Below the pieces are notes generated by a model that was not told where the DNA came from, did not search any database, and worked only from the letters and a program-made list of their open reading frames with translations. From Squalus acanthias (taxonomy: Eukaryota), in NCBI GenBank assembly GCA_030390025.1, contig CM059431.1, positions 157,358,001-157,422,000 on the forward strand: a stretch of 64,000 nucleotides of DNA, read 5' to 3'. The position numbers and the translations under genes were made by a program. Shown in pieces: positions 1 to 48,582 of this stretch (position 1 is the first letter of the stretch; every line of letters starts with the position of its first letter).

Positions 1-312
1 GTAGGTTGCATATCCCATAGACCGGATGAATTTTGCGAGAGCTCGGTGATACGTGAGATAATGCAGGTTGTGTGAGTTTAGAAATTAAGAAAGTGTTTAG
101 TTCGATGTAAAAATTGTGGCAGGGAATGTATTATAAAGGCAGAGAGAGGCAGACATGCTGTGAAGTGCAAAGGAGCAGAGAAATCGAAGCAACGATTTAG
201 AAACGTTCACTACAAGTTTCTCGAGATTCGAGCCACCGGCAATGGATAAAACCAATTAGATGGTTCACTGAATATACAGGGCTCCTTTGATAGAGAATGG
301 ACGGAAACTCAC

Positions 313-510
313 GGCCTTTAATTCCGACAGCTTAGCATTTAAATGTCAGTTAATTTCTTCATCCAATATTAGAAGTATGTCGCTATTACAAGTTTTATCG
401 TTCTCTAGGTTTTCCACTGGATCTATGCTGAGAACGCATGATGGTAGTTCTGCTAGTGATGTCTTATTATATAATTAATTTCGATTCAGCTGGGCTTGAC
501 CCGTACAATC
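313..510 (-). pseudogene. Exon: putative second half of CARD/death-fold domain (two in-frame stops)
   Basis: Acceptor ccccaaattacag|GAT, donor GCC|gtgagt, 198 nt, phase 0-0, matching the phase-0 end of exon 1235-1395. Translation DCTGQAQLNRN*LYNKTSLAELPSCVLSIDPVENLENDKTCNSDILLILDEEIN*HLNAKLSELKA (amphipathic helical pattern). Confidence 0.55.
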
Positions 511-734
511 CTGTAATTTGGGGTAATTGATCAATTGCTAGCACGCCCTCTTATCCGCTTTCAGAAACTGGAGTTAATACAACCCCTGCAGAAATGCGGC
601 CACTGGAATTACTTTAACAGCCGCACGTTTCACAGTGAATTCAAAGAGCTGGTTTTGGACCTGTCCTCCAGGATGTTGCTGGTGGCGGATTCCCCGATGT
701 TAATTCCATTAAATATCAGGGAGAGATGATGTGA

Positions 735-980
735 CTCTCTGTTGTTGGAGATGGTCATTGCCTGGAACTTGAGTTACAAGAATGTTTCTTGTCACATAAC
801 CGGCCAAACCTGGATGTTGTCCAGGTGTAGCTTCATATGGGGATGGACGAATTCATTAACGGAGGAATTGCAAATGAAGCTGAACACTGAATCATCAGTG
901 ACTAGCCCCAATTCTGACCGCATGAGGGATGGCCATTGAAGAAGCAATTAGAGATAGTTGGGTCTCGGACGCTGCCATGA
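735..980 (-). mobile_element. Fragment of CR1/L2-group LINE RT (same family as 41190-43000)
   Basis: ttggagatggtcattgcctgg...ggatgttgtccagg is the reverse complement of the RT region seen at 42100-42300. Confidence 0.65.
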
Positions 981-1234
981 AGCAAACATAGTTAAACCAA
1001 GAGATGCTTTTCACTCATTATTTAACGCATTAATTGAAGATTAAAGAACAAATTAATTTACCAGAGATATATCTCAGAGGAGCACTTAAAATGCTGTTTT
1101 CATTGGAATCGGACTCAATTTCAGAGTCACTATAGATTACTGCTTATATCGTTGGGTTGCACGGAATACAGTTAATCTAACTCTGACTCATGACTCATTT
1201 AACACCATGAGATTCCACCATATATATTGAATAC

Positions 1235-1395
1235 CTCATGATCTGCTTCAGTAAACACTTTTACATCAAAAAGCGACTGACTAACAGTCTCCACGAATTC
1301 TTGAATTGAATGTTCCAGAATCTGACGGTGGCACTCGATAATTCTCCACAGCTGGAAATCCGTGTAGCTCCTCAGCATCAGTAACGTTTTATTAG
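1235..1395 (-). pseudogene. Exon: CARD/death-fold-like domain, first half, resembling the N-terminal domain of chondrichthyan NLRs
   Basis: Acceptor caatacattcag|CT, donor GAG|gtattc, 161 nt, phase 1-0, open: (A)NKTLLMLRSYTDFQLWRIIECHRQILEHSIQEFVETVSQSLFDVKVFTEADHE. The D-F-Q-L-x-x-I-x-x-x-H-R-x-x-L-E-x-x-I-x-E-x-V-E-x-V-S pattern recalls the DxQLxxLTxFYRxRLEQAIEEGVEGVS motif I remember from shark/ray NLRC3/NLRP3-like proteins. Confidence 0.65.
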
Positions 1396-1694
1396 CTGAA
1401 TGTATTGTCAAGGTGTAAATGAGAACATATTAAAATACTGAGCCCGCTATAAAACAAAGAATACTCTGCACCAACTGATATAGCAACAGCGTTTATTAAA
1501 GCCTTTCAAGCAGTGCTACCGCAAGTGGCGCCTCACAGAGGAGGTATTAAGAATTAAAGCTGACTCTTTTTTGGTATAGTTAGGAGGAACGACTCAGTCC
1601 TTGCAACATTCGGAGGCTGGTTAAAGTTAGTAAGCAGTAGAAAGAGGGGGATCCTTAGGAACGGAGTCAGTGGGATTGATATCTTTAACTGGAG

Positions 1695-2435
1695 TGCGGA
1701 GCAGAAAAACCGATACACTAGAAATCACCGCGAAGGAGAGTTGTGTAACAGAGGGGATGCAGAGAAGACTGTAGGGATAAGGTGGGTGGGGCTGTACATT
1801 TATTGTAAATTGAGTAGGATCATTTCACACATGATCAATTTGGGATAAGAAGTGAATGTAAGTCAGTGACCAAGTGGTTTACGGACTTGAGAGTGAATTT
1901 GAATTGAAGCAATAGAGCTGTAGAAAAGTTGAAGTTTAAGACGGGCAAAGCCCAAATGTCGTGTGAGGATTCAAGTCTAAAGCTCACAAAAGCATGGATA
2001 ACGTTCAAGCAAATATTCGTATGGAAGTGCATGTCCAGAAAATAACCTATACCTGTTCCTGGCGGTGATCTGAGACTCCAGGTAAGATTTAATGTCTTGG
2101 AATCAGCAGATGCTTTTGAGCAATTAGACATAGTCGTGACTTTCACATTTGCCTGATGAGCTAATAAATAACATACAGAGACTAATAGTATAAAACACTA
2201 AATGCAACTTCATTCGTGCTTCCATTTTTCCTGCTTTATTTTAAGGAAGACTAAATTGTGAAACATGAACTGAGAAATGGAAATATTGTGAAGCCAACAG
2301 GCAGTCACACTAAACTTTACGGATATCAATACACCGAGTACTGGAAACAACGCTTTTGGAAAATAGATTTCATTATCAATAGAGAAAAAATCACACAAAG
2401 ACAAATGATTTACCTTAGACATGACTGTATCTAGT
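1695..2435. repeat. Direct duplication, copy A (~740 bp), containing a cytoplasmic exon
   Basis: tgcggagcagaaaaaccgatacactaga...gacatgactgtatctagtac recurs co-linearly at 3451-4192. Confidence 0.92.
2053..2152 (-). pseudogene. Cytoplasmic exon, copy A (2-nt deletion relative to reconstructed 102-nt phase 1-1 exon)
   Basis: ttattagctcatcag|GC...GGAACAG|gtatag; encodes ...VKVTTMSNCSKASADSKTLNLTWSLRSPPGT. Confidence 0.5.
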
Positions 2436-3450
2436 ACATTTCCATAATTAAATGTCCACTCAACCTTCTCTGCTCTAAGCAGAACCCAAACAGCTTCTCC
2501 AGTCAATCCACCTAACCAAAGTCCTTCATTCCTGGAACCATTCTTGTAAATCTTTTCTGCACTCTCTCTAAGCCTTCACATTTTTCCTAAAGTGCCATAC
2601 CCTGAATTGGGCACAATACTCCAGTTGAGCTCGAGGCAGTGTTTAATAAAGGTTCATTATAACTTCCTTGATTTTTTACTCAATTCCTCTATTTATAAAG
2701 CACAGTCTCCCGTAAGCGTGTTAACCACTTTCTCAAACAGCCGTGATACATTCAACGATTTGTTCACATATACCCCAAGGTCTCTCTGATCATGCAGCCC
2801 GTTCAGAATTGTACCCTTTAGTTAATATTGCCTCTCCTCGTTCTTCCTCCGTAAATATATCATTTCGCACGTTTCTGCATTAATTTTTTTCTGCCACGTG
2901 TTCGTCCATTCCACCAGCCTGTCTATGTCCTCTTGAAGTCTATCACTTTTCTTCTCACTGTTCACTATACTACCAAGTACTGTGTGAGCTACAAATTTTG
3001 AAATTGTACCCGGTACACCCAAGTCCAAATCATAACTATATATCCAGGAAATCAGTGATCCTAGTACGGACCACAGGGGAACACCTTCCCCCACTTCGAA
3101 AGACAACCGTTCCCCTATACTATCTGTTTATTGTCACTTAGCCAATTTCGTATCGAAGCTGCCACTGTCCATTTTACTCCATGGGTTTCAACTTTGCTGT
3201 CAAGCCTATTAAGTGGCATGTTATCAAACGTCTTGTGGAAGTCCATGTACACCACGTCAACCACATTGGCCTCACCGCACCCTCGCCTCACCCTCTCTGG
3301 TAACGCATCAAAAAAATAAATCAAGTTAGTTAAACAAGATTTGCCTTTGAATAATCCGTGCAGACTTTCTTTAATAAATCCACTCTTTTCCAAGTAACTG
3401 TTAATTTTTTTCCGATTTATCGTTTCGAAATGATTCCCCATTACCGATGT
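2436..3450 (-). mobile_element. Old CR1 LINE ORF2 (RT) fragment, internally deleted
   Basis: ORFs 3115-3486 (KGKSCLTNLI, VDVVYMDFHKTFD) and 2822-3106 (LQEDIDRLVEW) carry CR1 RT motifs. Confidence 0.9.
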
Positions 3451-4192
3451 TGCGGAGCAGAAGAACCGATACACTAGAGACCACAACGGGGAGAAGAGTG
3501 TAACAGAGCGGATGTTAAGAAGACTGTAGGGATAAGCTGGGTGGGGCCGTATATTTGGGTGAGGATGAGTAGGACCATTTCACACATGCTCAATTTGGGA
3601 TACGAATTTAATATAAGTTAGTGAGCAAGTGGTTTACGGATCAAAGGGTGAATTTGAATTTAAGCAATAGAGATATATATAGATTCTAGGTCATGACGGG
3701 CTGGGCCCAAAGGTCGTTTGAGGAATCGAGACTGAAACTCACAAAAGCATAGATAAAGTACCAGCAAATATTAATATAGAAAGGCATGATCAGAAAAATA
3801 ACCAATAATTGTTCCTGACGGTGATCTGAGACTCCAGGTTATATTTAATGTTTGGAATCAGCAGATGCTGTTGAGCAATTAGACATAGTCGTGACTTTCA
3901 CATGTTTGCCTGAAGAGCTAATAAATAACATATATAGATTAATAGTATGAAACACTAAATGCAAATCAATTCGTGCTTCCATTTTTCCTTCTTTATTTTA
4001 AGGAAGACTAAATTGTGAAACAGGAACTGAGAAATGGAAATATTTTGAAGACAACAGGCAGTCACACTAAACTTTACGAATATCAATAAACCGAGTTCAG
4101 GAAACAAAGCTTTGGGATATAGTTTTCATTATCAATAGAAATTAATCACACAAAGACAAATACTTTAGCTTGGACATGACTGTAGCGAGTAC
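3451..4192. repeat. Direct duplication, copy B
   Basis: Co-linear, highly similar to 1695-2435. Confidence 0.92.
3809..3909 (-). pseudogene. Cytoplasmic exon, copy B (1-nt deletion, donor GT lost)
   Basis: agctcttcag|GC AAA CAT GTG AAA GTC ACG ACT (GKHVKVTTMSNCSTASADSK); end reads GGAACAA|ttattg instead of GGAACAG|gtatag. Confidence 0.45.
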
Positions 4193-4280
4193 TGTTCAAC
4201 AATTAAATGTGCCCGAGCATAAAACATCAAAAGGATGCGGCGGGGAGTGTGTTGGAGAAAGTCGTGAGAGGTAGCTCTTT

Positions 4281-5015
4281 GGCTCAAAAATTAGTGCCGC
4301 TACGCGAGAGTACTCACTGCGTACTCTCGCGTATTCTGTCTCCAATTGCCGGTTTTCTGCATGCACTGCGCATGCGCTGAAAACCGGCACTTGGTGAATG
4401 GAAAAGGGGGCGTTTCCTAGCTGAACCGCGTGCGCGCTACAGGCTGCGTGCATGCTGTGCACTTAGTGGTTTCAACGCGCAGTTAAGTACGGATGATTTT
4501 ACACATAAAAAAAGGAGGAGTAAGACCCACTTTTAACAGGGTAAGTAGTGAATTAAGTATTATTTTGAATTTTTTTAACAGGTATATCTTTTTTAGAGAC
4601 TTTAAAGACAGGTAAGTTTATTTTTATAACTTTTTAAAAGATTTTAAATTTTTTCAAAAATTTATTTTTTTATTTAAAATGGTTAATTTATTTAACTATA
4701 CTTATTTTATTAATGTGATGGTTTTTTTAATTTAATTGAGGTTTAGCTGTTCTTTTGGGGGTATAGATTCATAGCTTTCACAGCACTTATGTGAAAGTTA
4801 TGAATGGAAGATGGTGTGCTGCCATTGGCTCTAACTGAGTCACGTGATCTCACAGCTCACTCGAATCACTACGCCTGTGGGATACGCAAGCCCAGCACAG
4901 CAGCTGCCCACAACATCAAGTTCGTGCGAGCTGGAACTGAAAAAGCCAACGCGCATTGAGAGAACGCGGGGAAGCCTTACCCTCGCACGAAGGCTTCCTC
5001 ACGAATTTTTGGGCC
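4281..5015 (+). mobile_element. MITE, putative non-autonomous PIF/Harbinger element
   Basis: TIRs ggctcaaaaattagtg / cacgaatttttgggcc; internal palindromes (gcgagagtac...gtactctcgc; gccggttttc...gaaaaccggc) and AT-rich core shared with 12158, 16146 and 32779 copies. Confidence 0.8.
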
Positions 5016-5262
5016 AATACCTCATCAACAACAACAAAAACAACACAATTAACGTGATATAAAGTACACCAAGGCGCCTCAAGGAAGTTTTGATGAGGCA
5101 TGAATACACACATCCTAGCCGAAGAAAGAGATAGTAAGGGTTCAGGAAGATTTACATTAATTGTAGTCAAAAAAGGGAGTTTTAAGCAGACGCTTAAGGG
5201 ATTAACCGGTCTGCAGAGGCGGAGGTGTTTATGGAGGGAATAACAGGGTGCGAGGCATGTAC

Positions 5263-5310
5263 CTCTTTCCCCATCGGAAATGTAACTCTCTTCTTCACTA
5301 TTTGTATTTC
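5263..5310 (-). pseudogene. Short cytoplasmic exon or 3' part of TM exon: (G)NTNSEEESYISDGER
   Basis: gctgcag|GA...AGAG|gtacat, 48 nt, phase 1-1, in frame with TM exon. The intervening 45 nt is also open and short for an intron, so 5263-5490 may be one exon. Confidence 0.45.
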
Positions 5311-5355
5311 CTGCAGCATTAATGCCCGGAGAAGAACACGCATTGTTTTCCTTAC

Positions 5356-5490
5356 CCAGCGGTTTGTCATCATTTCTGAGATCATGTGTCTGCTTTATCG
5401 AAGAATCAGGCCCAAAGTCTCTTAATAGTCCCAGCAGTATTACAACGAGTAAACTGTATCGTACGAACATTATTACAGTATCGTCAATCA
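5356..5490 (-). pseudogene. Transmembrane exon with intramembrane Arg
   Basis: ttctttaatttacag|TG...CTGG|gtaagg, 135 nt, phase 1-1, open: (V)IDDTVIMFVRYSLLVVILLGLLRDFGPDSSIKQTHDLRNDDKPL; hydrophobic run VIMFVRYSLLVVILLGLL. Confidence 0.65.
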
Positions 5491-6451
5491 CTGTAAATTA
5501 AAGAACAACTGTTGAGCTGATGTTACTCAATGATTCATTGACAATCTAAACAATCTAAAGCAATTATAAAAGCTCCAGACGCATTAACTTCCGTTCATCG
5601 TTTGCGTACCGCATTGTTCAGTTTACTTTCTGATATCCTCTGCTGTTTTCACAGTTTTTCTTTGCCAGGTAATCGGAATCTTGTGCATTTCTACACTTTG
5701 CCTAAATAACGGATTTATAAGGTGTCGCCTAGAGGTTTATCAGAGAAGAATGCGAACTGTGGCTGGGTTGACTCTGCACTTATTTTCATCTATTGTTCAA
5801 AAGATGGATTATTCTCACACAACAATAAATAATCTGTAATATATACGAACGAATACTTAATCGGATATCGCCATTTAGTTCTCCTTTTGGGTTCTGACTC
5901 GTTTGAGATGTTCCTGTTATCATTGCAATCGAAAAAATTCACTGCTGCAGCTGCTAGCTTCTGCTGCAAGATTGGTCTGCTTAGAGGCAGGAGTTGCATT
6001 TTCCCAAGTTATTTCCCTACAAGAGTTGGATGTAGTTTTAGAGATATGCGCTTGCTCCTGATTCCCCACCAAATACCCACTAATTCTATTTAACTTGAAT
6101 TATATAACTGATGTTAGAAATTTATGAATCATTGATTAAAATACTGAATGAACCGGAAGCGGTTATGAAATCCGATATTAAGTTGAAGTCTCTTCAGTGA
6201 CACTTGAAGTCTTTTAAATGTATAATTAGCAATCGTTCGTGCTTTAATTGTACATTGTTATTTTGTGACTAAATATACTATTATTTTTAAATCCGCGGCT
6301 TTACCGGCATTTTTACGAACTGTTCAGACGGCTACACCTTGTTCATTCGATTTCCCTACTACTTATGAATCAATAGCCGTGTTTCAAATATACGAATTGA
6401 AACGTTATCACAACAATCAACGCCGATCCTGTCAACAGGAATCAAGCTTAC

Positions 6452-6509
6452 CATAAAGTAACGGGATTAGTCTAATGGAGGGGTAGGGGAATACTTTTAC
6501 TCCAAATGA
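6452..6509 (-). pseudogene. Candidate small exon (stalk region)
   Basis: Strong acceptor ctcttctttaccttccag| and donor TG|gtaagc; 58 nt; phase not reconcilable without an indel. Confidence 0.35.
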
Positions 6510-6611
6510 CTGGAAGGTAAAGAAGAGCTTTAGAATACGTTGCAGATAAACACTCTACAATGAATAATAAATGTTGCAGATATGAATCAGATTTAAATTA
6601 CTTTGCCGTAC

Positions 6612-6648
6612 CTGGTACTTATTGAAATTTCTCATTGTTACTTATTGC
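6612..6648 (-). pseudogene. Candidate small exon (stalk region)
   Basis: Acceptor ctttctttattctgcttcag| and donor CAG|gtacgg; 37 nt; contains stops. Confidence 0.3.
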
Positions 6649-7336
6649 CTGAAGCAGAATAAAGAAAGTAGCAACCTTTGCGATCAGAGACCACATTAGG
6701 CTTCTACCGCTGGCGACGTTATTCAGTCACTCCGTTCATGCTTCAGCACCTTTTTCACCACTCAGGTGTTCTGCAATAAACAACGCTCCTCATTCTTCCG
6801 TTTTTATTTTAAGCCCAACTAACAGCGTATCTACGCCATCTTCTTTCATACTTCGCATTACTTCCATACGCTACTTCCTGCAGGTTTCTGCCCCGTCATC
6901 TTTTTTCCTTTTTCTCATTCCATGCTTCACTTCCTTCTTATAATTCACATTGCTGTTGCTTTTCCCTCCTTTCACCACATCGGCACCGATGCCTTCTCTT
7001 GAAGTTCCGCACTTAACCGGGATCCTTCTGTGATTTATCTGAATGTAATTTGTCAACTACTAAAAGTAATCCCTCCCCTTTATTGACAGGAATGTTGCAG
7101 GGGCCGTCTACTGCGGAGGCCGAATCAATATCCAACGCCTAACAAATTTCTACGCAATCAGTTCCCCTTAGCGCCAAGATCAAGCAGGAGGCTAAAACTG
7201 AAAGAAAATCAATTTAACATCTAAATCAATGACCAAGAGGGTTACCAAGTTGGATTGTGAACTTATCCAGCCTAACCCTGTCCGCAGCATGAGACGATAT
7301 ACACTGGAAATTTCTTCCCACGTTTCCGCTAATACG

Positions 7337-7762
7337 GGCAACACGGTGGCATAGTGGTTAGCACTGCTGCCTCACAGCGCCAGAGACCCGGGTTCGAATC
7401 TGACCTCGGGTGACTGTCTGTGTGGAGTTTACGCATTCTCCCCGTGTCTGCGTGGCTTTCCTCCGGGTGCTCCGGTTTTCTCCCACAGTCCAAAAATGTG
7501 CGGGTTAAGTTGATTTGGCTATGATAAATTGACCCTTAGTGTTAATGGGGGATTAAATATGTGGGGTTATGGGGATAGGATGGGATATGTTAGGGGGAAT
7601 TAAATACATGGGGTTACGGGGGTCGGGTGGGATATGTGTACTGTGGGGATTAAAGCAGGGACAGGGTACTGGATTTGGATGATCAGCCATGATCGTATTG
7701 AATGGTGGAGCAGGCTCGACGGGCCGAATGGCCTACTCCTGCTCCTAGATTCTATGTTTCTA
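7337..7762 (+). mobile_element. tRNA-derived V-SINE (HE1-like) with CR1-derived 3' tail
   Basis: A box tggcatagtgg, B box ggttcgaatc, V-domain tgtgtggagttt..cattctccccgtgtctgcgtgg..tttcctccgggtgctccggttt, tail gggccgaatggcctactcctgctcct as in local CR1 3' ends. Confidence 0.9.
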
Positions 7763-7848
7763 TAATTTGTTCAAACAGGAATTGGATTTGATCACGTACC
7801 CACTTGACTGTGGCCTTCTAATAGAGAGTGGACTGTGCCAGCACCCAC

Positions 7849-8165
7849 TTGGAGTAATTTCAGCATTTCCCGATAGTGTTAGACGGAAGATAGTGGCTCG
7901 GAGATAAACCTCTCGATATCGCATATCGTCCATTTTACACTGGCGCCAAAAGCTTAACTTGACCCCAAAAGTTATGGATGAATTCTTCCCGTTATCAGAA
8001 TTCACAGGGGATGTTGAAAATGCGTCCTTAGAGATTTTGCCATGTATCAATATGCAGCTTAGTAGAATTTCAAAGCTATGTTTATAATGTAGCATTCACG
8101 GAGAGGCTCTGTTATTCCTCGGCCTCGGTTTACAGATTCTCTAACCTGGTGTTTTTGTTCTGGAA
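7849..8165 (-). pseudogene. Ig-like (C1/C2-type) exon, 1-nt frameshift
   Basis: tgtttgtacctacag|TT...ACTCCAA|gtgggt; 317 nt (one short of a phase 1-1 multiple of three). Joined translation (V)PEQKHQVRESVNRGRGITEPLRECYIINI/SFEILLSCILIHGKISKDAFSTSPVNSDNGKNSSITFGVKLSFWRQCKMDDMRYREVYLRATIFRLTLSGNAEITP shows beta-strand spacing typical of Ig C domains. Confidence 0.5.
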
Positions 8166-8593
8166 CTGTAGGTACAAACATAGTAAACGGCAGAATTTTA
8201 TTAGTACCTTCATTTCATGCATGTGGCGAAATAGCAGGGGAGTGGAACTAATTGGCTAGCTCTTCCTGTCCGCCAGCACAGGAAATATTGTTCGAAAGGA
8301 GGCCTCCGATATTAAGTTTCTATCCATCGATGTTTTACCGTCATTTTTGTAAAAGGAGCAGGCGGTTCAGAACCTTGATCACGTTCCGCCATTTAATGAG
8401 ACAATTGCTTATCTGTATCTTAACTCCATCAAATCACCATTTGTCCGTTTCCATTAATATGATTCACTAGCCAAACTCTATCGAACTCATGTTTAAAATT
8501 AGGATGTGTCCATTTGCAGCACCAAATTTCTGATTGGACTATTGGAGGACAAGATAATATTTCTGATTTGTCAACTTGGAGGACAAGACTCAC

Positions 8594-8695
8594 CCGGCAG
8601 TTTGTCTGCAATGTGTAATTAGATCCTGCCTGCCTGAGTAATCAATATCTTTGTAATATGTATTTGATGCATTCATTTTGACAGCCAGGCTCCAG
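8594..8695 (-). pseudogene. 3' part of B7-type IgC exon (separated from its 5' part by TE insertions)
   Basis: Ends at consensus donor CCGG|gtgagt; reads SLAVKMNASNTYY.. then LHIADKLP in a shifted frame. With 10553-10733 it totals ~280 nt, a normal Ig exon size. Confidence 0.35.
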
Positions 8696-8999
8696 ATTTC
8701 ACAGTGCTAACACTACTGCTTTCAGAGAACAGACAGTGCTCACCCTCCCAGGTTACGAGCTAGCAAGGGGTGAGGACATGGATGGAATTCAACATGAGGA
8801 TGAACTTTTTGAAATCAAGGTGTTGATGGACCATGAGCCCATTAATGTACCCGCCATTTTGGGGGGCGCGGCTCCTTTAAGGGCTACGCGACTCATTCAA
8901 ATTGTTGCATGAGCGGTCTAATCCTGTCCCAACACTGGGAGAACGAGATCCATCTTCTCATCTGGATCACGTTCTGGCTCTCATCCCCGCCCTTTAGAA

Positions 9000-10552
9000 C
9001 TGGATCTCATTAATCCAACTCCTCACTGATCTCACAGTGCTCCCCACAACAACCTATCCAAGTTAGTCCCACTTCCCTGTTCTTTCCCCATAACCCTGTT
9101 TTATTCCTTGAAGTATTTATCCAATTACATTTTGGAAGTTCATGTGAAATCTGATTCTACCACCCTTTCAGGTAATGCGTTCCAGATCAAAACAACAATC
9201 TTTGTGAAATAACTTCTCCTCATTAACCCTCTAATTATTATTATTTTTTAATCTGTTCACTCTGGTTACCTACGCTTCTTCCACTGTAACAGCTTCTCCT
9301 TATCTAATCTATGAAAATCATTCATGATTTTGAACACCCCTATCAAATGTCCACTCAACCTCCTCTGCTCCAAGGAGATCAATCTCAGCTTCTCCATTCT
9401 CTGCAAATTAATGTTTCCCTCATCCCTGGTTCCATTCAAGTAAATCGCTTCTGCACCCCCTCTAAAAACTTTGCAGCTTTCCTAAAGTGTGTTGCCCAGA
9501 ATTGAACAAAATATTGAAGTTGAGGCGTAACCAATGTTTCATAAAGATTTAACATAACTTCCTTGCTTTTGTACTCCGCGTCTCTGTTAATATAGTCAAG
9601 GATACCATGTGCATTTCTAGCAGCCTTCTGAACTTACTCTGCCATAATCAATTATTTACGTACATACGACCCCTAGGTCTATCTTTTTCTGCAGCCTCTT
9701 TGAAATGGTACCATATAGTTTATTTTGTCTCTCCTCAACCGTCCTACCAAAATATCTCACTTCACAATTCTATGCGTGAAATTTAATCTGCCATGTTTCG
9801 GCCAATCCAAAATATGTTGCTCTCCTCTGGGAGTCTATTAATATCCTTCACATTGTTTACTACATTTAGGAGTTACGTGTAATCTGCTATCTATGTAATT
9901 ATATCCTGTAGACCCAATTCCAGTTCATTAACATATATTAAAATTGCAGTGGTCCTAATACAGATCCCTTGGAAACAAGGTTGCATAGATCCATGCAGTA
10001 TGAAAAACTACCGTTCACTGCGATTTTGTTTTCCGTTCGTTATCCAATTTTGAATCGAAGCATCCAGTTTCCCTTTAATAAAATGGGTTTATTTTTTGTA
10101 ACAAATCTATGATGTGGAACTTGATAAAATGCCTTTTCAAAATTAACATTCACAACATCAACCGCACTAGCCTCATCAACCCTCGCCATTATTTGAGCAA
10201 AAAAACAAATCAAGATATTGAAACACAATTTTCTTTTAACAAGTCCTTTCTAACTTTCATTTATCAGCCCGTAACTTTCGGAGAGTCAATTATTTTTCCC
10301 CTGATTATTGTCTCTAAAAGTTTCACACCGGCCACTTCAGGTTGACTTGCCTGTATTGCTAGATATATCCCTCTCCACTGTTTTGAACATTTGTGTTACA
10401 TTTGTGTAACCACCCGTCTGGCACCGCCTCTTTATCTAAGGAGTATGGTAAGATTCTGTCCAGAGCCTCCTCAATTTACACCCTTACTTTCTTCAGTGAT
10501 CTAGGAAACATTGCCTCTGGACGAGGTGACTGCTCTATTTTGAGTACTGCCA
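9000..10552 (-). mobile_element. Old CR1 LINE (RT and 3' end) inserted inside the IgC exon
   Basis: ORF 10040-10228 (VDEASAVDVVNVNFEKAF) and reverse-complement CR1 3' region at 9050-9600. Confidence 0.85.
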
Positions 10553-10733
10553 AAGAAACCTTCTGCTGATCACCAGGTACACCCCATTATTTATAACCTT
10601 ACAACTCGGAACTTCCTTCAGCCCTTCGTCACTTTCAAGCCAATAATTAAACTCTAGTACAATGGGAAATCTATAAGCCTCAGGTAAACGTTAGAATTCG
10701 ACATCACTCAGTGATCATACGGCTTACTGTAAT
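10553..10733 (-). pseudogene. 5' part of B7/butyrophilin-type IgC exon
   Basis: Acceptor aattttccgcttttgatgtttag|AT, phase 1: (D)YSKP/MITE*CRILTFT*GL../FPIVLEFNYWLESDEGLKEVPSCKVINNGVYLVISRRF. YSKP start, FP, W and NGVYLVIS match B7-family IgC patterns; stops and frameshifts present. Confidence 0.5.
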
Positions 10734-11987
10734 CTAAACATCAAAAGCGGAAAATTATAGAGCAAAAGAGTTTAACAAAATGACGGACCACAGCCCACAA
10801 TTGTAATCATTTGCATCCAGTCCAGTATGGTGCTGACCAATCATACAACTAAAGTAATAACATAAGAACGTAAAATATAGGAGCAGGAGTAGGCCATTTG
10901 GCCCCTCGAGACTGCTCCGCCATTCAATAAGGTCGTGGCTGATCTGATCCTGGCCTCAACTCCACATTCCCGCCCGCTCCCCATAAACCTTGACTCCCGT
11001 GTAGCTCAAATATCTGTCTTTTCCGTCTTGAATATATTCAATGACTCTGCCTCCACAGCTCTCTGGTGCAGAGAATTCCAAAGATTCACGACCGTCTGAG
11101 AGAAGAAGTTCCTCCTCATCTCCGTTTTATATAGGCGACCCCTTATTCTGAAACTGTGTCCCCTAGTTCTAGAGTTCCCCAAAAGGGGAAACATCCTCTC
11201 TGCATCAAACCTTACAAGCCCCCTCAGACTCTTATGTGTTTCAATAAGATCACCTCTCTTTCTTCTAAACTCCAATGAGTATAGGCACAACCTCCTCAAC
11301 CTTTCTTCATAAGACAACACCTTTATCTCAGGAATCAACCTCGTGAACCTTCTCTGAACTTCGTCCAATGCAAGTATAGCCCTCCTTAAATAAAGAGACC
11401 AAAAACTGCACGCATTACTCCAGATGTGGTCTCCCCAGCGCCCTGTACAGTTATAGCAAGACTTCCCTACTTTTACACTCCATCCCCCTTCCATTTAGGT
11501 CCAACATTGCATTTGCCTTCCTAATTATTGCTGTAACTGCATGCTAACTTTATGTGTTTCATGTACGAGGACCCCCAGATTCCTCTGTACCGCAGCATTT
11601 TGTAGTCTTTCTCCATTGAAATAATAATTTGCTTTTATATTCTCCCTACCAAAGTGGATAACCTCACATTTTCCCACATTGTACTCCAGCTGCCAAAATG
11701 TTGCCCACTCACATAACCCATCCATAACCCTTTGCAGACACTTTGTGTCCTCCTCACAACTTGCTTTCCCGCCTATCTTTGTATCATCAGCAAATTTGGC
11801 TACTGTATATTCGGTCCCTTCATCCAAGTCCTAAATATAGATTATAAATAGCTGAGGCCCAGGCACTGATCCCTGTGACACCCCACTAGTTATAGTTTGC
11901 CAACCTGAAAATGACCCATTTATCCCGACTCTCCGTTTTCTGTTAATTAGCCAACACTCTATGCATCCTAAAGTATTACCACCATCC

Positions 11988-13812
11988 CTGTGAGCTGTAT
12001 AGAGAACTGGTTGGCAGACAGGAAGCAAAGAGTAGGAATAAACGGTTCTTTTTCCGCATGGCAGGCAGTGACTAGTGGGGTACCGCAGGGATCGGTGCTA
12101 GGATCCCAGCTATTCACAATATATATTAATGATCTAGACGAGGGAACTAGATGTAATGGGCCAGAAATTCGGCTCTTGTCGGGTGAGTACGCGCTATGTA
12201 CTCACCCGTAAGGCCAACTGAAGTGCCGGTTTCCTGCTTGCACTGCGCATGCGAGGCAAACCGGAACTTCCGTTGCCCTGAAGGGAGGGGTTCAGAGGTG
12301 AAACGCGTGCGTGGGAGAGGCTGCACGCAGGCAGCGAACTTCGCTGTTTTTTTCAGGTTTATCCGGGAGGGTAAGTATGGAAAAGCTGCACTTTTAAATA
12401 GAAGGCGCAAATCCTGTTTTTTACAAGGTAAGTGGTTAATTAATTACAATTTAAACATTTTTTCAACAGGTTTACCTTTTTTAGATACTTTAAAGAAAGG
12501 AAGTTTATTTTTGCACCCTTAAAAAGTATAATAATTTTTTTCAAAAATTTATATTTTTGTGTAATTAGTTAATTTAAGAAACTTATAGTTATTTTAAAAA
12601 TGTCAGTAAAAAAAAAACATATATGAAGTTTATGTGTGCTTTTGGTGCAGATCTCTATTCATGGATTTGACAGGTCTTCCTGCCAAATCTATGAATGAAA
12701 ATGCCCTGTTAGGATTGGGTCTCCATGGCCCACGTGATCACAGGGGACGCTTCGAACTAACTGCGCCCCTGGGATGCGCAAGCACTGCACGCCGGCAGCT
12801 GCAGGAGGGCCAGGACCCGAAGTCCTCGTGTGCCCAAAGCACAACAGCAGATGCGGTAGGCATGTATGCGCGTGATTCCTGCACCCGCAGGAAGCCAGAA
12901 AGCCGAATTTCCGACCCAATATCTCTAAGTTTGCAGACGTGAGCGTGTGTGCTGTGAGGAGGATGCAGAGAAACTCCAGTATGATTTGAACAGGTTGTGT
13001 GATTGGGCAGATGCATGGCAGATGCAGTATAATGTGGATAAATGCGAGGTTATCCACTTTGCTGGCAAAAACAGGAAGACAGATTATTATCTGAACCGCA
13101 ATAGATTGGGAAAAGGGGAAGTGTAACGAGATCTGGGAGTCCATGTGCACCAGTCGCTGAAGGTAAGCATGCAGGTGCAGCAGTCGGTTAAGAAGGCAAA
13201 TGGTATGTTGGCCTTCATAGCGAGAGGATACGAGTACAGGAGCAAGGATGTCTTGTTGTAGTTGTACAAGGCTTTGGTGAGACCACACTTTGAGTATTGT
13301 GTGCAGTGTTGGTCGGCTTATCTGAGGAAGGATGTTCCTGGGATGGCAGGAATGACGTATGAACAGAGATTTAGTCGATTAGGCTTATATTCGCTGGAGT
13401 TTAGAAGAATGAGAGGGGATCTCATTGAAACTTATAAAATTCTAACAGGACTAGGCAGACTAGTTGCAGGAAGGGTGTTCCCGATGGCGGGGAAGTCCAG
13501 AACCAGAGGACACAGTCTAAGGATAAGGGGTAAGCCATTTAGGACTGAGATGAGGTGGAATTTCTTCACCCAGAGAGTGATGAACCTGTGGAATTCCCTG
13601 CCACAGAAGGCAGTTGAGGCCAATTCATTAAATATAATCAAGAAGGACATACATATATTTCTTAAAGTTAAAGGGATCAAGCGATATTGGGAGAAAGCAG
13701 GGACAGGGTACTGAATTTGGATGATCAGCCATGATCTCATTAAATGGCGGAGCAGGCTCGAGGGGCCGAATGGCCTACTCCTGCTCCTATCTTCTATGCT
13801 TCTATTCTTCTG
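11988..13812 (+). mobile_element. 5'-truncated CR1 LINE nested in opposite orientation, itself carrying a MITE
   Basis: ORF 11990 ([10 protein letters not shown]) and ORF 13262-13714; near-identical to 53750-54850. Confidence 0.93.
12158..12917 (+). mobile_element. MITE (PIF/Harbinger-type), 3-bp TSD AAT
   Basis: TIRs gggccagaaattcggct / agccgaatttccgaccc flanked by aat...aat; homologous CR1 at ~53900 (actagatgtaatatctctaag) shows the empty site with one AAT. Confidence 0.9.
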
Positions 13813-14439
13813 TTCTTATCTGGTGCAGTAACCTTTTATGTGGCACCTGATCGAATGCCTTCTGGAGATCCAAATACACTACATCTACTGTTTCCCCTTT
13901 TTCCATCCTGCTCGTGACATCCTCAAAGAACTCTAGTCAATTTGTCAAACACGGTTTCCCTTTCATAAAACCATGTTGACTGCCTCATTGTATTATGATT
14001 TTCTAAATGTCCTGCTATGTCTTCCTTAGTGATGGATTCCAGCATTTTTCCAATGACAGATCTTATACTAACTGGCCTGTAATTTCCTGCTCTCTGTCTC
14101 CCTCCTTTCTTGAATAAGGGAGTTACATTTGTGGTTCTCCAATCCGTTGGGACCTTTCTAGAATCCAGGGAATTTTGGTAGATTACAACCAATGCATCCA
14201 CTATCTCTGCAGCCACTTATTTTAAGACCCAAGAATGCAGGCCATCGGGTCCAATGGACTTGTTAGCCGTTAGTCCTATTCGTTTTCCTAGTACTTCTTT
14301 TTATCTACTGATAGTGATTGGTTTAAGTTCCTTCATCCCTATAACTCCTTGATTATCAATTATTATTGGGATGCTTTTATTGTTTTCCAGCGTGAAGACC
14401 GATAAAAAAATATTTGTTCAAATTCTCTGCCATTTCCCT

Positions 14440-15110
14440 GGAGCATGAGACTCTATGAACGTTTATATCCTGAAATAAGTGTAACAACAGCACGCGATTT
14501 CAAGAGAGAAGAGTGAAGTGCGTGACAGTGTCTTCAGCCAAAATGGCCAAGTGGATGATTCTATTGGGAATCATCGAGATTTTGCCTCACTCATACAGTC
14601 ATTACCTGCAATTTCAGTTCCATCCACTTGATGTTAAGAAGCAGAAGAATGCACAGAACACAGTGAATACTTTTGGTTTTGACTACATACCACCATTAGC
14701 TGTAGAAGGGCTCAACTTCATAACTAGCTCTCCCCACCCCAAGCCAAGCTAATCTAGTGCATCTGACATGGCATCTGATGGACAATATACAAGGATGACC
14801 AGCTGTGTCCTAACCAAAAATTCAACAACAGACTGTATCCTGCCAATTACTGACGTATCAACTGCCTTATAATTATCAGCAAAGCGATGGATGGACTAAT
14901 CAATAGAGCCATCAAACAACATTCACTCATCAATAACCTGCTTTCCGATATTCAATTCGGGTGGTGCCTGAAATGATCGGTTCTGGATTTTTTCACTGAT
15001 GCAAGATTTGAATGCCGGAGAACAGGAGACCGTACCTCATCTCGACAACAAAGGCTGCATTTCACCCGGTTTTGTGTCCTGATTTCAATGAGATTGAAAC
15101 GGCAAAACAC
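14440..15110 (+). mobile_element. Very old CR1/L2-group LINE fragment, duplicated with the locus
   Basis: gtcttcagccaaaatggccaagtggatgatt resembles 41347 (atcttcagccagaagtgccgagtggatgtt); paralogous to 44560-44793 plus 47398-47830 and to 50400-50640. Confidence 0.6.
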
Positions 15111-15459
15111 CCGTAGCTTGAAACTTTGGTACTCGGTGAAAGTTAGTAGTTGCGTTTTGTGCTCAAAAGTCTCTAACTCTAAATTTTTCGTCGTAACGTT
15201 GTCATAGAAGAGAAATTATTTAAATACTATTTACAGCCGCAGAACGTCAGCGGCTGTGTATGTATTTGGAAGTTTTACTCCGTTAATGACACTGCTTCCA
15301 GTAAACTGATTTCTGAAAAAAGCAATCCTTTCTTACCCCATCCCCTATGTATAATATAAAGTTTCACTATCATTGAAGATCGACAGAATTCAACGGCGAT
15401 ATGTCCATTCCCGTAAATTAGAACCCAGTAATTGTGCTCAGTATATTTCGGGTCCTTAC

Positions 15460-15830
15460 CTTGTGCTGCGTATCCTGATTCTGGTTCCAGGGAGTCTGGC
15501 TAAATTAGCGTTGTGCGTTCTGCAGGATAATGAACACACCCTGGGTAAAGCTCAGTTGCACACAAAGTCATAAATCCGACCTTCAGTCTGAGCAGTACTA
15601 TCCCTGCCCGCCTTTTCTCTGGAGCAAGTTTCGATCGGAATGAAACCCAGTCTCATTAGGATTAAAGTGTTCTGATAAATTACGAATATTTTCATTATAA
15701 GTCATAAATTATGTCTGTGATAACAATGGTTACTCTGCGATTCTGATTACTTTGCAGGGAAATTGGTTTATCTATCTGGATTCAGTTTCGTGTCCTCGAT
15801 TCGACTTTATTTCTCACCATTTAAACTGTT
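15460..15830 (-). pseudogene. IgV-like exon, copy 1 (acceptor removed by CR1 insertion)
   Basis: Consensus donor CAAG|gtaagg; clear nucleotide paralog of 33717-34115 and 48188-48582; phase-1 end joins the (D)YSKP exon. Confidence 0.5.
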
Positions 15831-15831
15831 A

Positions 15832-18800
15832 TTGAGAGATTACTGAGACGTGGCTACAGCAATAGTCATGACTGGGAATTAACCATTGCCTTGCGCAACA
15901 TATATAGAAAAGATAGAGAGGGAAAAGTGGAGGTGGAGTACCTGTACTTATTGGAGATACATTAATGGCAGTAGAAAAAGTGACGTAGCCATCAGTAAGA
16001 GATAAAATGAATTCACTTGGATAGAGATAAAATATAATAAAGGATCAGTCACATTAACAGTGGTAGCCTACAGACCACCTAATAGTGGAAGGGAGAAGGT
16101 GAAAGAAATATGCAAATACATTAGGGAAATGAGTGAAAAGATAGAGGGGCAGAAATTCGGCTGTTGTCCGGTGAGGACGCACTGTGTACTCACCCGTAGG
16201 TACAACGAAAGTGCCGGTTTCTTGCATGTACTGCGCATGCGCGGGAAATTGGCACTTCCGTCCCCCTGAAGGAAGGACTTCAGAGGTCGAACGCGCACGC
16301 CAGAGGGCCAGCGCGTTCGCCTCGCACTTCGGTTTTTTTTTACAGGTATCTCCGTGAAGGTAAGCACGGAGAAGATACACTTTTAAAAAGGAGGCGCAAG
16401 GCCTTTTTTATCAAGGTAAGTGTTGATTTTATTAAAAATTAAAAAAACATTTCACAGATTTATCTTTTTTAATGACTTTAAAGAAATGTAAGTTTAGTTT
16501 TAGCCCCGTTAAAAAATGTAATTAATTTATTCAAAAATTTAAATTTTTGTTTATAATAGTTAATGAATGTAATTTATAGTTATTTTTAAAATGTTATGGT
16601 TTTTTTAATTTATTTGTAGTTTTAGGGATGTTTTGGGGCCGATCTGTATTCATAGATTTGACAGGTCTTCATGTCAAATCTATGAATGAAAGATGGTCTG
16701 CTGCCATTGTCTATCCATGGCCCACGTGATCCAAGGGGACGCATCGCACTGACTACGCCCCTGGCATAAACAAGTACTGCACGCCGGCAGTTGGAGGAGG
16801 CCCAGGAACCGAAGTCCCCGTGGGCCCAGAGGTCAACGGCAGGCATGGTAGATAGGTGCGTGCGCGATCCTTGCACCCGCGGGAAGCCAGGGAGCCGAAT
16901 TTCTGGCCCAGAATAATAATCATGGGGGATTTCAACTACACGGAAATTAATGGGCCAGATGAGGGAGATAAATAGGATAAGTGAATGGAACCCCGACAAT
17001 GTGTATAGGATTCCATTAAAACCATTATGTAAGAAGTCCAACAAGGGAGGATTCGCTACTGGAATGAACTTGGGCAAATAGGATAAGTAAAAGTAAGGGA
17101 ACATCGGGACAATCGTGGACATAACATAATATATTTTAAGATAATAATTGAGAAGGTCATAAGCAATAGAATGAAGAAAAGCTGATTTTGAGGGGCTGAG
17201 CTTGGAAAATAAAATGGACAACAATATTGGCAAACAAAAATGTAGTACATTAATGGGAAGCATTTAAATGTCGTTCAGCACAATCTAGGAAATATATATT
17301 CCTCTAAAAAGCAAGAACCAAAAAACAGTAATGATACACCATGGATGAATAATGATGAAGGGTACAATTGAGGTTAAGGAAAGAACCATACTCTAATTAC
17401 ATGGACAGCAGTAGAAAGCATGACAAGCGAAATATGAAAAAAAGGGATAAATCTAAAAACTATTAGAATGACAAAGAGGAACTTTCAAACTATTGTATAA
17501 CGGAACATATAAAAGCAAAATATTCTCCAGGCATGTAAATGAAAAAAAAGGAATGTTGGGATGGCAATAGAGCCATCAAAGGCTGGACAGGTGAAACTCA
17601 AATGCAGCGATAGCGAAATGGCAGAAATATTAAATCATTACTTTGCGTCAGTAATTACAGGGAGACATAATCAAGAGAAGAGATAGATGAGGTACGATTA
17701 CCCATATTGAGTAATTCGTTAGGAAAAGGTGTAGTGCCAAAGGACGGGTGGAGAGCTAACGTTATACCTCTATTTAAGAAGGGAGTTAGAACATGTACAG
17801 GGAACTATAGACAAATCAGCTTCACATTGGTGGCAGGAAATATAATGGAATCCATGTTAAAATGAAAATAGAAAAACATCTTTAAAGCAAATATAAATAC
17901 TCAGCATAGATTTCTAAAGGGAAATTCTTGCTTGGCCAATCTCATGAAATATTTCGAAAAGGTAACAGAGAGCGTAGAAAGGGGTAAGTCAGTACATGTA
18001 ATATATCTAGCTTTCCAAAAGGCCTTCGTTAAGGAACCACGTAATAAAATAATGAATAATGTTAGAGCATGTGGAGTCAGGGGAGTTGTAGCTCAATTTA
18101 TAGCTAGCTGGCTGCAAGATAGAAAGCAGGCAATGGGGTAAAAGTTAAATATTCAGCGTGGCAGAAAGTGGGAAGTCGGACCCGACAGACCAGTGCTGAC
18201 ACCACGGTTTTCAAAATTTATATTGGCGATTTGGACTTTGGAATCTAAAACAACATTTCCTAATTTGGAAACAACAAATTGGTGGGTGGGGATAGTCAAA
18301 GCTCAGGAGCAGTGCAATAAATTATAAGAAGACATTAATAAACTTGCAGACTGGGCATTTAATTGGCAAATTAATTACAACAGAAAAAGTGTGAGGTATT
18401 AAATGCTGGAAAGCAAAATAAGGTGGTCACATATTACTTGGGAAATACAATCTGAACGCGGCAGAGCTGCAAAGGGATCTGGGAATGAAAATACACAAAT
18501 CATTTAAAAGTAACGACCCAGGTTAATAATGCCTTAAAAATCAAACTAAGTATTAGGGGTTATTTCCAGAGGGATAGAATTGTAGAGAAGTTATGTTAAA
18601 CTTGTATTGAACCGCAGTTATACCACACTTGTGTACTGTGCACAAATCTGGTCGCCATTTTATAAAAAAAGATATAGAGGCACATGAGGGGGACCAAAGA
18701 GATTTACAAGTATGATACCAGATATACATATCAGGAAAGTATGAACAGGCTGGGTTTCTTTTCTATTGAAACGAGAAGGCGGAGGGATAACCTAATTGAG

Positions 18801-33716: not shown

Positions 33717-34115
33717 CTTGAGCTGCTGTTCCTGATGCTGGTTCCAGAGAGACTGGATAAGTTAGCGTTGTGGGTGCGCCAGTTTAATGAACACACCCTG
33801 GGTAAAGATCAGTTGCACGTCACAGTCATAAAGACGGCCTTAAGTCTGAAAAGTGGAATCCCTCCCCGCCATGACCTCCATGCAGGACTCGATCTGAATC
33901 TTACACAGCCTCTTCCATTTGAAATGGTATGAACAATTATTGATCTTTTACACAAAATCGTTGAACGTTTGCGAGGTAATTATAGTTACATTTCCATCAA
34001 AACCTCAATCTGCGATGCAGAAGACCTCACATCATAACCTGGTTCTGCAGGCGGAATCAGTTCCGGTTCCTCAATTCGAGTATATTGCTCATCATAAAAG
34101 CTCTTTATTATCGGA
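33717..34115 (-). pseudogene. IgV-like exon, copy 2
   Basis: Acceptor ctgtggacttttatag|TC, weak donor CAAG|gtgatg, 399 nt (phase 1-1 compatible); multiple stops. Confidence 0.5.
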
Positions 34116-47289: not shown

Positions 47290-48187
47290 CTGTTTCTCTC
47301 TCCACGGATGTTGCCTGGCCTGCTGAGTTTTAAGGCGCTTTCTGTTGTTATTTCAGTTTTCCAGCATCCGCAGTATTTTGCTATTGAATGATTTTGGTCT
47401 TGACTACATCCCACTATTAACTGCAGAAAAGCTGAACTCCAGATCTAGTTGTTCCATTCCCGTAGGCAAGCTATTCCAGTGCATCTGAATTTGACATCGG
47501 ATAGACAATATATAAAGACCATAGAGCTGTGTCCTAACCACAAAGTCAACACCAAACTGGTTCCAGCCAATCCCCGCCCTATCAGTCACCTCACAATGAT
47601 CAACAAAGTAATGGATGAACTACTCAAACAACATTCAGTCATCAATTACTTGCTCACAGACGTTGTTTTCGGTGGTGCCTGAAATCCTCGGATAAAGACT
47701 TGGTTACAGATGCAAGAGTTTAGTGCCACAGAAGAGGTAACCGGCACTCACCTCGGCAAGAAGGCAGTGTTTTACTCGGTTTGGCACCATGGAATCGTAG
47801 CTTAATGAGGTCAATGCGAGTCAAAGGAACTTACTCAAGTTTCCTTGATTGGAGATTTCGGATTTCGGTGACGTTTAGTCGCGGTGTTTTATGTTGAAAA
47901 GTTTCGACCTCCAACTTTATATTCGTAACAGTGTCATAAACGAGTAATACATTTAAATATTATTTGAAACAGTGGAACTTTAGCGTTGTAGTTTATATTT
48001 GGAAGTTTTACTCTGCTGTATTGTGCTGCCTGCAGGAAGCTAATTTCTGAATAAAAGCAATCCGTCCTTACCTGATCCAATATGGTTCCTACAACTTTTT
48101 AAAATCATTGAAAAACTACACAAATCAACGGCAATGGGTCCATGCCTGTACAGTAAGACACAATAATGGTGCTCTGTACATTTTGGG

Positions 48188-48582
48188 CTGCGGCTCCTGA
48201 TTCTGGTTCCAGAGATTCTGGGTAAGTTAGCGTTGTGTGTTCTGCAGGTTAATGCACACACCCTGGGTAAGGATCAGTTACACATCACAGTCATAAACAC
48301 GACCTTCAGTCTGATCAGCAGAGTCCCTCATCGCCCTGTTCTCTGGTGCAGGGTTCGAACTGAATCAAACACGGTGTCCTTCGCATTGAAATGTTCTGAT
48401 GAATTACTGATAGTTTTAGCAAAGTCATTAATTCTGTGTGTGATAACAAGGATGATATTTCCCACAGCTCTTCCCACTGCAGTTCAGAAAACGCCGCAAA
48501 GAAACCGGTTTCTGCAGCGGGAATCAGTTTTGTGTCCTCAACTCAATTTTATTGCTCACCAATAAAACTGTTTATTATCGGA
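48188..48582 (-). pseudogene. IgV-like exon, copy 3 (donor deleted)
   Basis: Acceptor cttgctatctgtgcccttttatag|TC; mosaic of frames gives PIINSFIGE..KLIP/CR..F.GVF*..GNIILVITH..EHF..GTLLIRLKVV/..VYDCDV../TTLTYP; ~14-nt deletion removes the donor seen in copy 1. Confidence 0.5.

Follow-up and report, generated by a model that had tools for sequence, protein, structure and literature searches.

A probable degraded edge of a CARD-module array in Squalus acanthias, previously read as an immunoglobulin-transmembrane-CARD receptor gene

To our knowledge, vertebrate NLRs and CARD adaptors are regarded as soluble cytosolic proteins, the membrane-tethered exceptions being MAVS and CARD19 (BinCARD-2), which are CARD proteins on organelle membranes with a C-terminal transmembrane (TM) helix. 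More than one CARD in a row is found in the tandem-CARD sensors NOD2, RIG-I and MDA5, which have two CARDs each. This study examined a stretch of 64,000 nucleotides from Squalus acanthias (positions 157,358,001-157,422,000 of the 159.8-Mb contig CM059431.1 in a 3.7-Gb assembly; hereafter the window), in which an earlier note had described a broken gene for a cell-surface receptor combining B7-like V and C immunoglobulin (Ig) domains, a TM helix and a cytoplasmic CARD. Membrane receptors with Ig, TM and NACHT parts have been described from sea cucumber as AjNLRC4 and AjNLR-new (PMC13133943; PMC8699970). For cartilaginous fish, a whale shark genome report describes an expanded NLRP-related NLR family (PMC8455134), and the published account of shark NLRs, in the portions available, mentions neither TM segments nor repeated CARDs; full-text searches of the literature, supplements aside, gave no description of TM-anchored or multi-CARD NLRs in cartilaginous fish.

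The proposed gene probably merges real exons of CARD/NLR type with decayed non-coding sequence, and the window would be the degraded margin of a large array, of elasmobranch type, in which CARD modules stand together with TM-anchor exons. The left end of the window lies within a CARD-exon cluster of ~6 Mb near the chromosome end, organized in tandem units of 4-9 kb each, with copies of the first CARD exon (D1) forming same-strand runs at that spacing. All gene features described here sit on the minus strand of the window. Within the exon chain proposed on that strand, 1395-1235 and the TM exon are open, whereas 510-313, 8165-7849, 10733-10553 and 15830-15460 carry stops, the last three in every frame.

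The two-exon module and its relatives

The exon at 1235-1395 (D1) is assigned as the first exon of a two-exon CARD module, covering helices 1-3; it is 161 nt long, open, bordered by AG and GT, and runs from phase 1 to phase 0. When the genome was searched in six frames for the 53 residues encoded by 1393-1235, at least 129 matches came back, 112 of them at E<0.001; among these 112 copies, 105 are stop-free and 110 map to the window's own chromosome, within 153.7-159.3 Mb.

The second half of the CARD had been placed at 510-313, an assignment that did not survive comparison with the other units. This sequence (D2, 313-510) contains two in-frame stops in the window, and the same positions are stops in 12 of 12 paralogous copies, with 2-5 stops per copy and, in each of 6 copies, 0-3 stops beyond the shared ones. 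It is absent from all public protein models examined, where D1 is joined directly to another exon, and is best described as a pseudo-exon or intronic sequence that was mistaken for the second CARD exon. A copy of D2 follows D1 by ~0.7-0.9 kb in every unit, and a third conserved block lies 2.1-2.8 kb further on. This third block is exon X, with a polypyrimidine tract, an AG, a 199-nt open frame and a GT donor, running from phase 0 to phase 1 in 11 aligned copies. The X of the window unit is open and sits outside the window, 1,912 bp left of its first position, giving a D1-X intron of 3,145 nt. Across the genome there are 433 candidates for X, of which 150 were scored and 147 were open, and both D1 and X are open in all copies that were read directly. 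Together they form a symmetric phase 1-1 module of 360 nt and 120 residues, and both CARD halves are encoded and open at the locus (D1 at 1393-1235 and X outside the window). The distribution of stops (7 of 112 copies for D1 and 3 of 150 for X, against 12 of 12 for D2) argues that the open frames of D1 and X have been maintained. A view of D2 as a diverged duplicate of X was dropped, as the lengths between shared motifs do not fit.

The comparison of the proposed two-exon CARD with the N-terminus of NLRs was sound in outline, though its second exon is X and not 510-313. An intact NLR gene of the same cluster, 2 Mb away (L025), has the same exon pair in the same phases: the counterpart of D1 runs from phase 1 to phase 0 and that of X, 163 nt long, from phase 0 to phase 1, and a NACHT exon of 577 codons that starts in phase 1 comes directly after them. 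Genome-wide, at least 481 NACHT candidates were counted, many of them at 137-147 Mb of the same contig and on contig C29, and all of the 95 that were scored exceed the Pfam cut-off; judged by this count, the NLR repertoire of the genome is very large.

Protein relatives were collected with the X profile. Among longer proteins, the profile had a single match, XP_072354261.1 from Scyliorhinus torazame (P0001, 264 bits), a protein laid out as four D1-X modules, a hydrophobic segment, a fifth module, NACHT, NOD2_WH, NLRC4_HD2 and LRR. The fifth module of this protein is recognized by Pfam CARD (PF00619) at residues 641-711 (E 3.1e-10; 40.4 bits against a cut-off of 23.9), and the window D1 aligns to the same module (residues 625-674) at 50% identity (E 1e-11) and to three other modules at 40-42% identity. 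By this likeness to a Pfam-CARD-positive module, the earlier reading of 1395-1235 as death-fold sequence is upheld. Searched exhaustively with HMMER, the X profile returned 59 proteins at E<=0.001; of the resulting 60 homologs (these 59 and XP_072354261.1), 23 contain NACHT and 5 contain Pfam CARD at E<=1e-4, with 3 above the cut-off (P0001, P0006 and P0010). The 20 homologs that were looked up represent eleven shark and ray species, together with one cod protein, one Logan contig and one MetaClust entry. When D1 alone was used, the search for homologous proteins among longer proteins found nothing, and in the ESM Atlas its best score was 0.88, to unnamed clusters.

Structural comparison was carried out with a short member, XP_072133694.1 from Mobula birostris (P0017). 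The AlphaFold model of this protein, built from a 13-row alignment, has a pLDDT of 83, with values >90 over residues 11-110. In VIA-align, the first 32 rows for the model are all CARD structures (Z 11.8-6.2), headed by that of NLRC4 (6mks; Z 11.8, rmsd, the root-mean-square deviation, 2.8, 89 aligned), and the next row has a Z of 4.0; the E-values of Foldseek for the same model are weak, 0.14 at best. At the level of the family, the D1-X module is, as judged from these relatives, a CARD of NLR type. In addition, the Logan contig (P0060; 1,075 nt) holds a D1-like and an X-like part contiguously, which suggests a spliced transcript of an NLR-type CARD because introns of ~3-5.7 kb separate D1 and X in this genome.

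One of the matches lies outside the elasmobranchs. CAL8349490.1 (P0010), a teleost model of 1,254 residues from Arctogadus glacialis, is weakly matched by the X profile (E 7.6e-8, 7 stretches) and is a predicted multi-CARD chain with 8 Pfam CARD stretches and 2 Death domains.

The transmembrane exon and the proposed ectodomain

The TM helix had been described as two exons (5490-5356 and 5310-5263); the sequence is real and open, but it probably forms one exon and not two. Both pieces lie in a single open reading frame (ORF 4916-5497), and the 45 nt between them keep the frame. Since 45 nt is too short for a vertebrate intron and the gap is in frame, one TM/cytoplasmic exon of 228 nt (5263-5490, phase 1 to 1) is the simpler reading. 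The phases given from the TM exon onward are arithmetically right. A further exon of 102 nt could not be singled out, dozens of chance open intervals between AG and GT being available, mostly in sequence derived from long interspersed nuclear elements (LINEs), and none was adopted.

The TM exon has 18 matches in the genome, comprising 8 clear copies of two subtypes (7 of 8 open) and 10 weaker ones. In the window copy, a 12-bp deletion lies in the hydrophobic stretch, and 12 uninterrupted apolar residues are present (best 19-residue Kyte-Doolittle mean 2.40, with an Arg inside); in paralogs, the apolar run is 21 residues long in the sister copy (L022) and 24 residues long in an array-end copy (L034), where basic residues follow. 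Four of the 10 weaker matches are placed 2-5 kb beyond the final scored X of an array, on the strand of that array, and the frame of the L034 exon, if unspliced, stops 18 codons past the helix.

Several computed RefSeq models place TM segments next to CARD modules. A paralogous TM subtype (L021) matches residues 78-137 of XP_078087540.1 from Mustelus asterias (P0003; E 0.003), in which an N-terminal hydrophobic stretch, ~40 residues, a TM helix, three CARD modules and NACHT follow in this order. In XP_078390056.1 from Cetorhinus maximus (P0004), two CARD modules are followed by a TM helix close to the end of the protein, and XP_072354261.1 is the third model of this kind. The joining of the TM exon to 1395 that had been proposed is mirrored in XP_078087540.1 (TM, CARD, NACHT), though it is seen in computed models elsewhere only. 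A protein search with the TM-exon alignment gave nothing at E<=1, and neither the window TM exon nor XP_078390056.1 aligned with the L034 TM exon in BLASTP.

A NACHT exon that might follow this copy was found neither in the 64-kb window nor in the 40 kb to its left, which is downstream on the minus strand. With a shortened TM core and neither valid upstream exons nor NACHT, the copy in the window probably does not make a working membrane protein; that this copy is broken, as had been stated, agrees with its degraded state and shortened TM core.

On the minus strand, the order of the window unit is TM/cytoplasmic exon, D1, D2 pseudo-exon and X. Window positions 1-16,500 form a segmental duplicate that is 92-96% identical to an inverted copy 0.65 Mb away, with further duplicates on an unplaced contig (93-95% identity), in a third copy (85-88%) and in a fourth (77-83%). 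The window unit is followed by a second D1 with a diverged X and by an element like the C2 described below; next are a TM exon belonging to the other subtype and a third D1, after which 20 kb contain no X. At the inverted duplicate of the window unit, D1 and X strictly alternate over 9 modules (158.026-158.089 Mb), all open, and another piece like the C1b element described below comes after this array.

A NACHT pseudogene lies 13 kb past the end of the nine-module array on the opposite strand (158,102,817-158,104,532; L031 6817-8532, minus). It contains stops and frame breaks and shares 34-45% identity with the NACHT exon of L025.

Upstream of the TM exon, the stretches that had been read as V and C domains of a B7-like ectodomain are non-coding in all copies examined. 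The C2 element (7849-8165) is conserved ~2 kb upstream of most of the 8 TM exons of the W/L013 type, with one copy at 6.4 kb, an arrangement that favors an ectodomain, but it holds no intact exon and carries no Ig signal. Its length of 317 nt means that it is no phase 1-1 Ig exon, two stops in the frame proposed for it are common to 5 aligned copies, and its splice signals are lost in one. Over its last 82 residues, 7 of the 8 W/L013-type copies beside TM exons contain stops; of the TM exons next to them, 7 of 8 are open. The open part of C2 (82 residues) gave an AlphaFold model with helices only and a pLDDT of 41, a quality too poor to judge the fold; the ESM Atlas gave no usable match to the C2 ORF, and BLASTP of this ORF against the short ectodomain of XP_078087540.1 gave E-values of 16-82. 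The proposed C1 exon consists of two pieces, of which C1a (10553-10733) has stops in all three frames and occurs only in the window and its closest duplicate, and the 3' piece C1b (8594-8695) is open in one frame, has no family match, and keeps a motif like N-x-S...Y/H-C-K-D-V in one paralog.

The V element (15460-15830) belongs to a dispersed repeat and is interrupted in all three frames by stops whose positions are conserved. The repeat has at least 268 candidate copies, many on other contigs and on other chromosomes too; the 40 that were scored are mostly 79-80% identical over the last 270 nt, and stops close to the 3' end, in all three frames, are common to two copies of another contig. 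For the idea that V could be a 5' non-coding exon of NLR genes, the one NLR locus and the CARD arrays that were read gave no support, as the element is absent from them.

Two more copies of V occur in the window at 48182-48572 and 33717-34085 (minus strand); they are 72-81% identical to 15460-15830 and have no CARD, TM or C2 nearby. The 3' end of the repeat carries a conserved AAG|GTAAGG.

No Ig family of Pfam matched V, C1a, C1b or C2 at E<=10, in the proposed frame or in all three frames, nor any of 7 paralog copies, in a scan whose HMMER filters drop most matches above ~0.1. The stops of the proposed Ig exons are common to duplicates, including copies that are only 72-80% identical. A conserved Cys...Trp...Cys pattern is missing, a four-copy alignment of C2 shows no conserved first cysteine, and an Ig-type domain is present in 0 of the 60 homologs, so that an Ig-TM-CARD protein was not found among them either. 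Additionally, the space between the N-terminal hydrophobic stretch and the TM helix of XP_078087540.1 is only ~40 residues. An Ig ectodomain is not supported, which leaves room for a very old, fully decayed ectodomain at most.

Several other features of the region were recorded. LINE reverse-transcriptase fragments are found on both strands at window positions 11006-11830, 12689-13714 and 9266-10249 and at L010 2419-4532; one such fragment splits the proposed C1 exon, and this insertion is common to the closest duplicate. A segment S (1695-2455, minus strand) is present upstream of D1 in every unit; the window holds it twice, the two copies being separated by a LINE fragment, and the second copy (3451-4210, minus strand) is ~84-88% identical to the S of other units. 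The window is GC-rich at 56001-58000 (GC 0.59, against ~0.42 elsewhere), with strong GC and AT skew. On the plus strand of L032, a long run of short repeats at ~2890-5776 gives peptides such as ...HTWQDPDT.L... and ...YTPGRILIH... in several frames and is probably a satellite.

Weighing the explanations

The rival explanation that survives best, unlikely as it is, makes each D1-X unit a small gene of its own, transcribed from the 300 bp before D1 and translated from an ATG in D1 into a CARD-only product, with the TM exon belonging to other transcripts and the chains of modules being artefacts of prediction. The ~300-bp block in question (1396-1700, minus strand) aligns in all 13 units compared and could be a promoter, a 5' untranslated region or the end of an intron. 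Codon 6 of D1 is an in-frame ATG in the window unit and several others, the GenBank model GCB66031.1 begins at this very methionine, and short single-CARD proteins are among the matches (P0016, P0017, P0045, P0056 and P0060). However, the ATG is missing in 7 of 14 aligned D1 copies, which have Thr or Ile there, and X has no stop before its conserved GT donor, where it ends in phase 1, so that a further exon is needed. The AG acceptor of D1, kept in 12 of 13 aligned units, also speaks against this explanation.

It is quite unlikely that the whole region is dead DNA, made up of recently amplified pseudo-exons that resemble one another through duplication and gene conversion and yield no product. 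Such a reading would accommodate the identity of 82-96% between units, which extends across introns as well, and the local chain that ends in a D1 with no X within 20 kb; it is also favored by the Ka/Ks values and by the missing gene ends of the window unit, which are discussed below. It does not accommodate the open frames of 105 of 112 D1 copies and 147 of 150 X copies, while the D2 sequences of the same units gained extra stops, nor the conservation of the module in sharks and rays in front of NACHT exons. The contiguous D1-like and X-like parts of the Logan contig, with their suggestion of splicing, likewise stand against it.

An ancestral Ig-TM-CARD receptor with the window as its broken copy is very unlikely, given the shared stops, the repeat nature of V, the length of C2 and the lack of Ig matches, even though exon-like pieces stand in the proposed order, some with AG/GT borders, and Ig, TM and NACHT occur together in sea cucumber receptors (PMC13133943; PMC8699970).

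The reading preferred here, in which the window is the degraded edge of an array of CARD modules with TM-anchor exons, has to be held against a number of contrary points. The cluster of 6 Mb was read over ~230 kb. Pfam gave no match to the window exons alone even at E<=10 and no CARD for the X-exon copies taken one by one; profiles of X or D1 alone gave chance-level rows and no CARD against PDB sequences, and because of these results the CARD assignment rests on homologs. BLASTP of the window D1 against XP_072133694.1, the protein that was modelled, gave no alignment. Expression and all splice junctions in this genome are inferred from sequence, and neither a start-codon exon nor a last exon could be assigned to the window unit. 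The paralogs have high Ka/Ks values (0.69 for D1, 0.87-1.05 for X and 0.85 for D2); these hardly separate coding from non-coding sequence and indicate weak amino-acid constraint or diversifying selection. Finally, the multi-CARD and TM-CARD-NACHT proteins are computed gene models, and tandem exons that are phase-compatible can be chained wrongly.

The D1-X modules are arranged in arrays that a short TM-helix exon punctuates or ends; under this preferred reading, intact members would carry one or several cytosolic CARDs tied to the membrane by the TM helix. Some members may continue into NACHT-LRR, and others may end as tail-anchored multi-CARD proteins. Signalling would most likely proceed by homotypic CARD-CARD polymerisation, as in MAVS, CARD19 and the tandem-CARD sensors. 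More tentatively, and as a possibility that we would not yet favor, sharks and rays may possess a family, undescribed in the literature searched, of membrane-tethered CARD proteins and NLRs built from >100 phase-symmetric two-exon CARD modules and TM-anchor exons, where chaining or alternative use of modules would vary the number and choice of CARDs from one locus, some members would be true transmembrane NLRs, and the window would be a decayed array edge.

Comparison with described systems

The striking part of the original proposal, an Ig-TM-CARD receptor, was not borne out. Should the elasmobranch models that combine TM, CARD(s) and NACHT-LRR prove real, vertebrates would offer an example of membrane-bound NLRs, and arrays of 120-residue CARD modules would, if the reading is true, be an unusual way to vary an effector domain. 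The locus also holds a lesson for annotation: all exons of the array are phase-compatible with their neighbors, so that readers and gene predictors alike can chain real exons with pseudo-exons.

To the B7/butyrophilin genes, the window has a likeness only in the order of ectodomain and TM exons and in a few short motifs; it differs in that V-set and C-set matches, phase 1-1 Ig exons, conserved cysteines and B30.2 are all lacking. The sea cucumber proteins AjNLRC4 and AjNLR-new, as membrane-bound proteins of NLR type, come nearest, among published proteins, to the Ig-TM-CARD idea; they differ in belonging to an echinoderm and in being said to lack a CARD (PMC8699970), and no Ig was found in the window.

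The shark NLRs are closer. They have the same two-exon N-terminal CARD phases directly before a FISNA-like/NACHT exon, lie in the same genomic cluster and are matched by the X profile. In contrast, the modules of the window unit and of the arrays are not each followed by a NACHT exon, and modules are repeated up to 9 in a row. The predicted proteins XP_078087540.1, XP_072354261.1 and XP_078390056.1 share with the locus a TM helix beside D1-X modules, with the TM exon leading directly to D1; they differ from the receptor once proposed in having no Ig domain, two of them put CARDs before the TM helix, and all three are predictions.

With MAVS and CARD19, the common ground would be one or more CARDs followed by a TM anchor near the C-terminus, as predicted for the TM-ended arrays and as seen in the computed model XP_078390056.1, and the CARD of BinCARD (4dwn) is row 11 of the VIA-align comparison for the XP_072133694.1 model. 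No relation in sequence was seen beyond the CARD fold, and the shark family has tandem CARDs and a kinship with the N-terminus of NLRs. The tandem-CARD sensors, whose structures 7dni, 4p4h and 2lwe are among the VIA-align matches of the same model, likewise bear consecutive CARDs at their N-terminus; they have two, whereas 2-5 are counted in the shark models and as many as 9 phase-compatible modules in the arrays.

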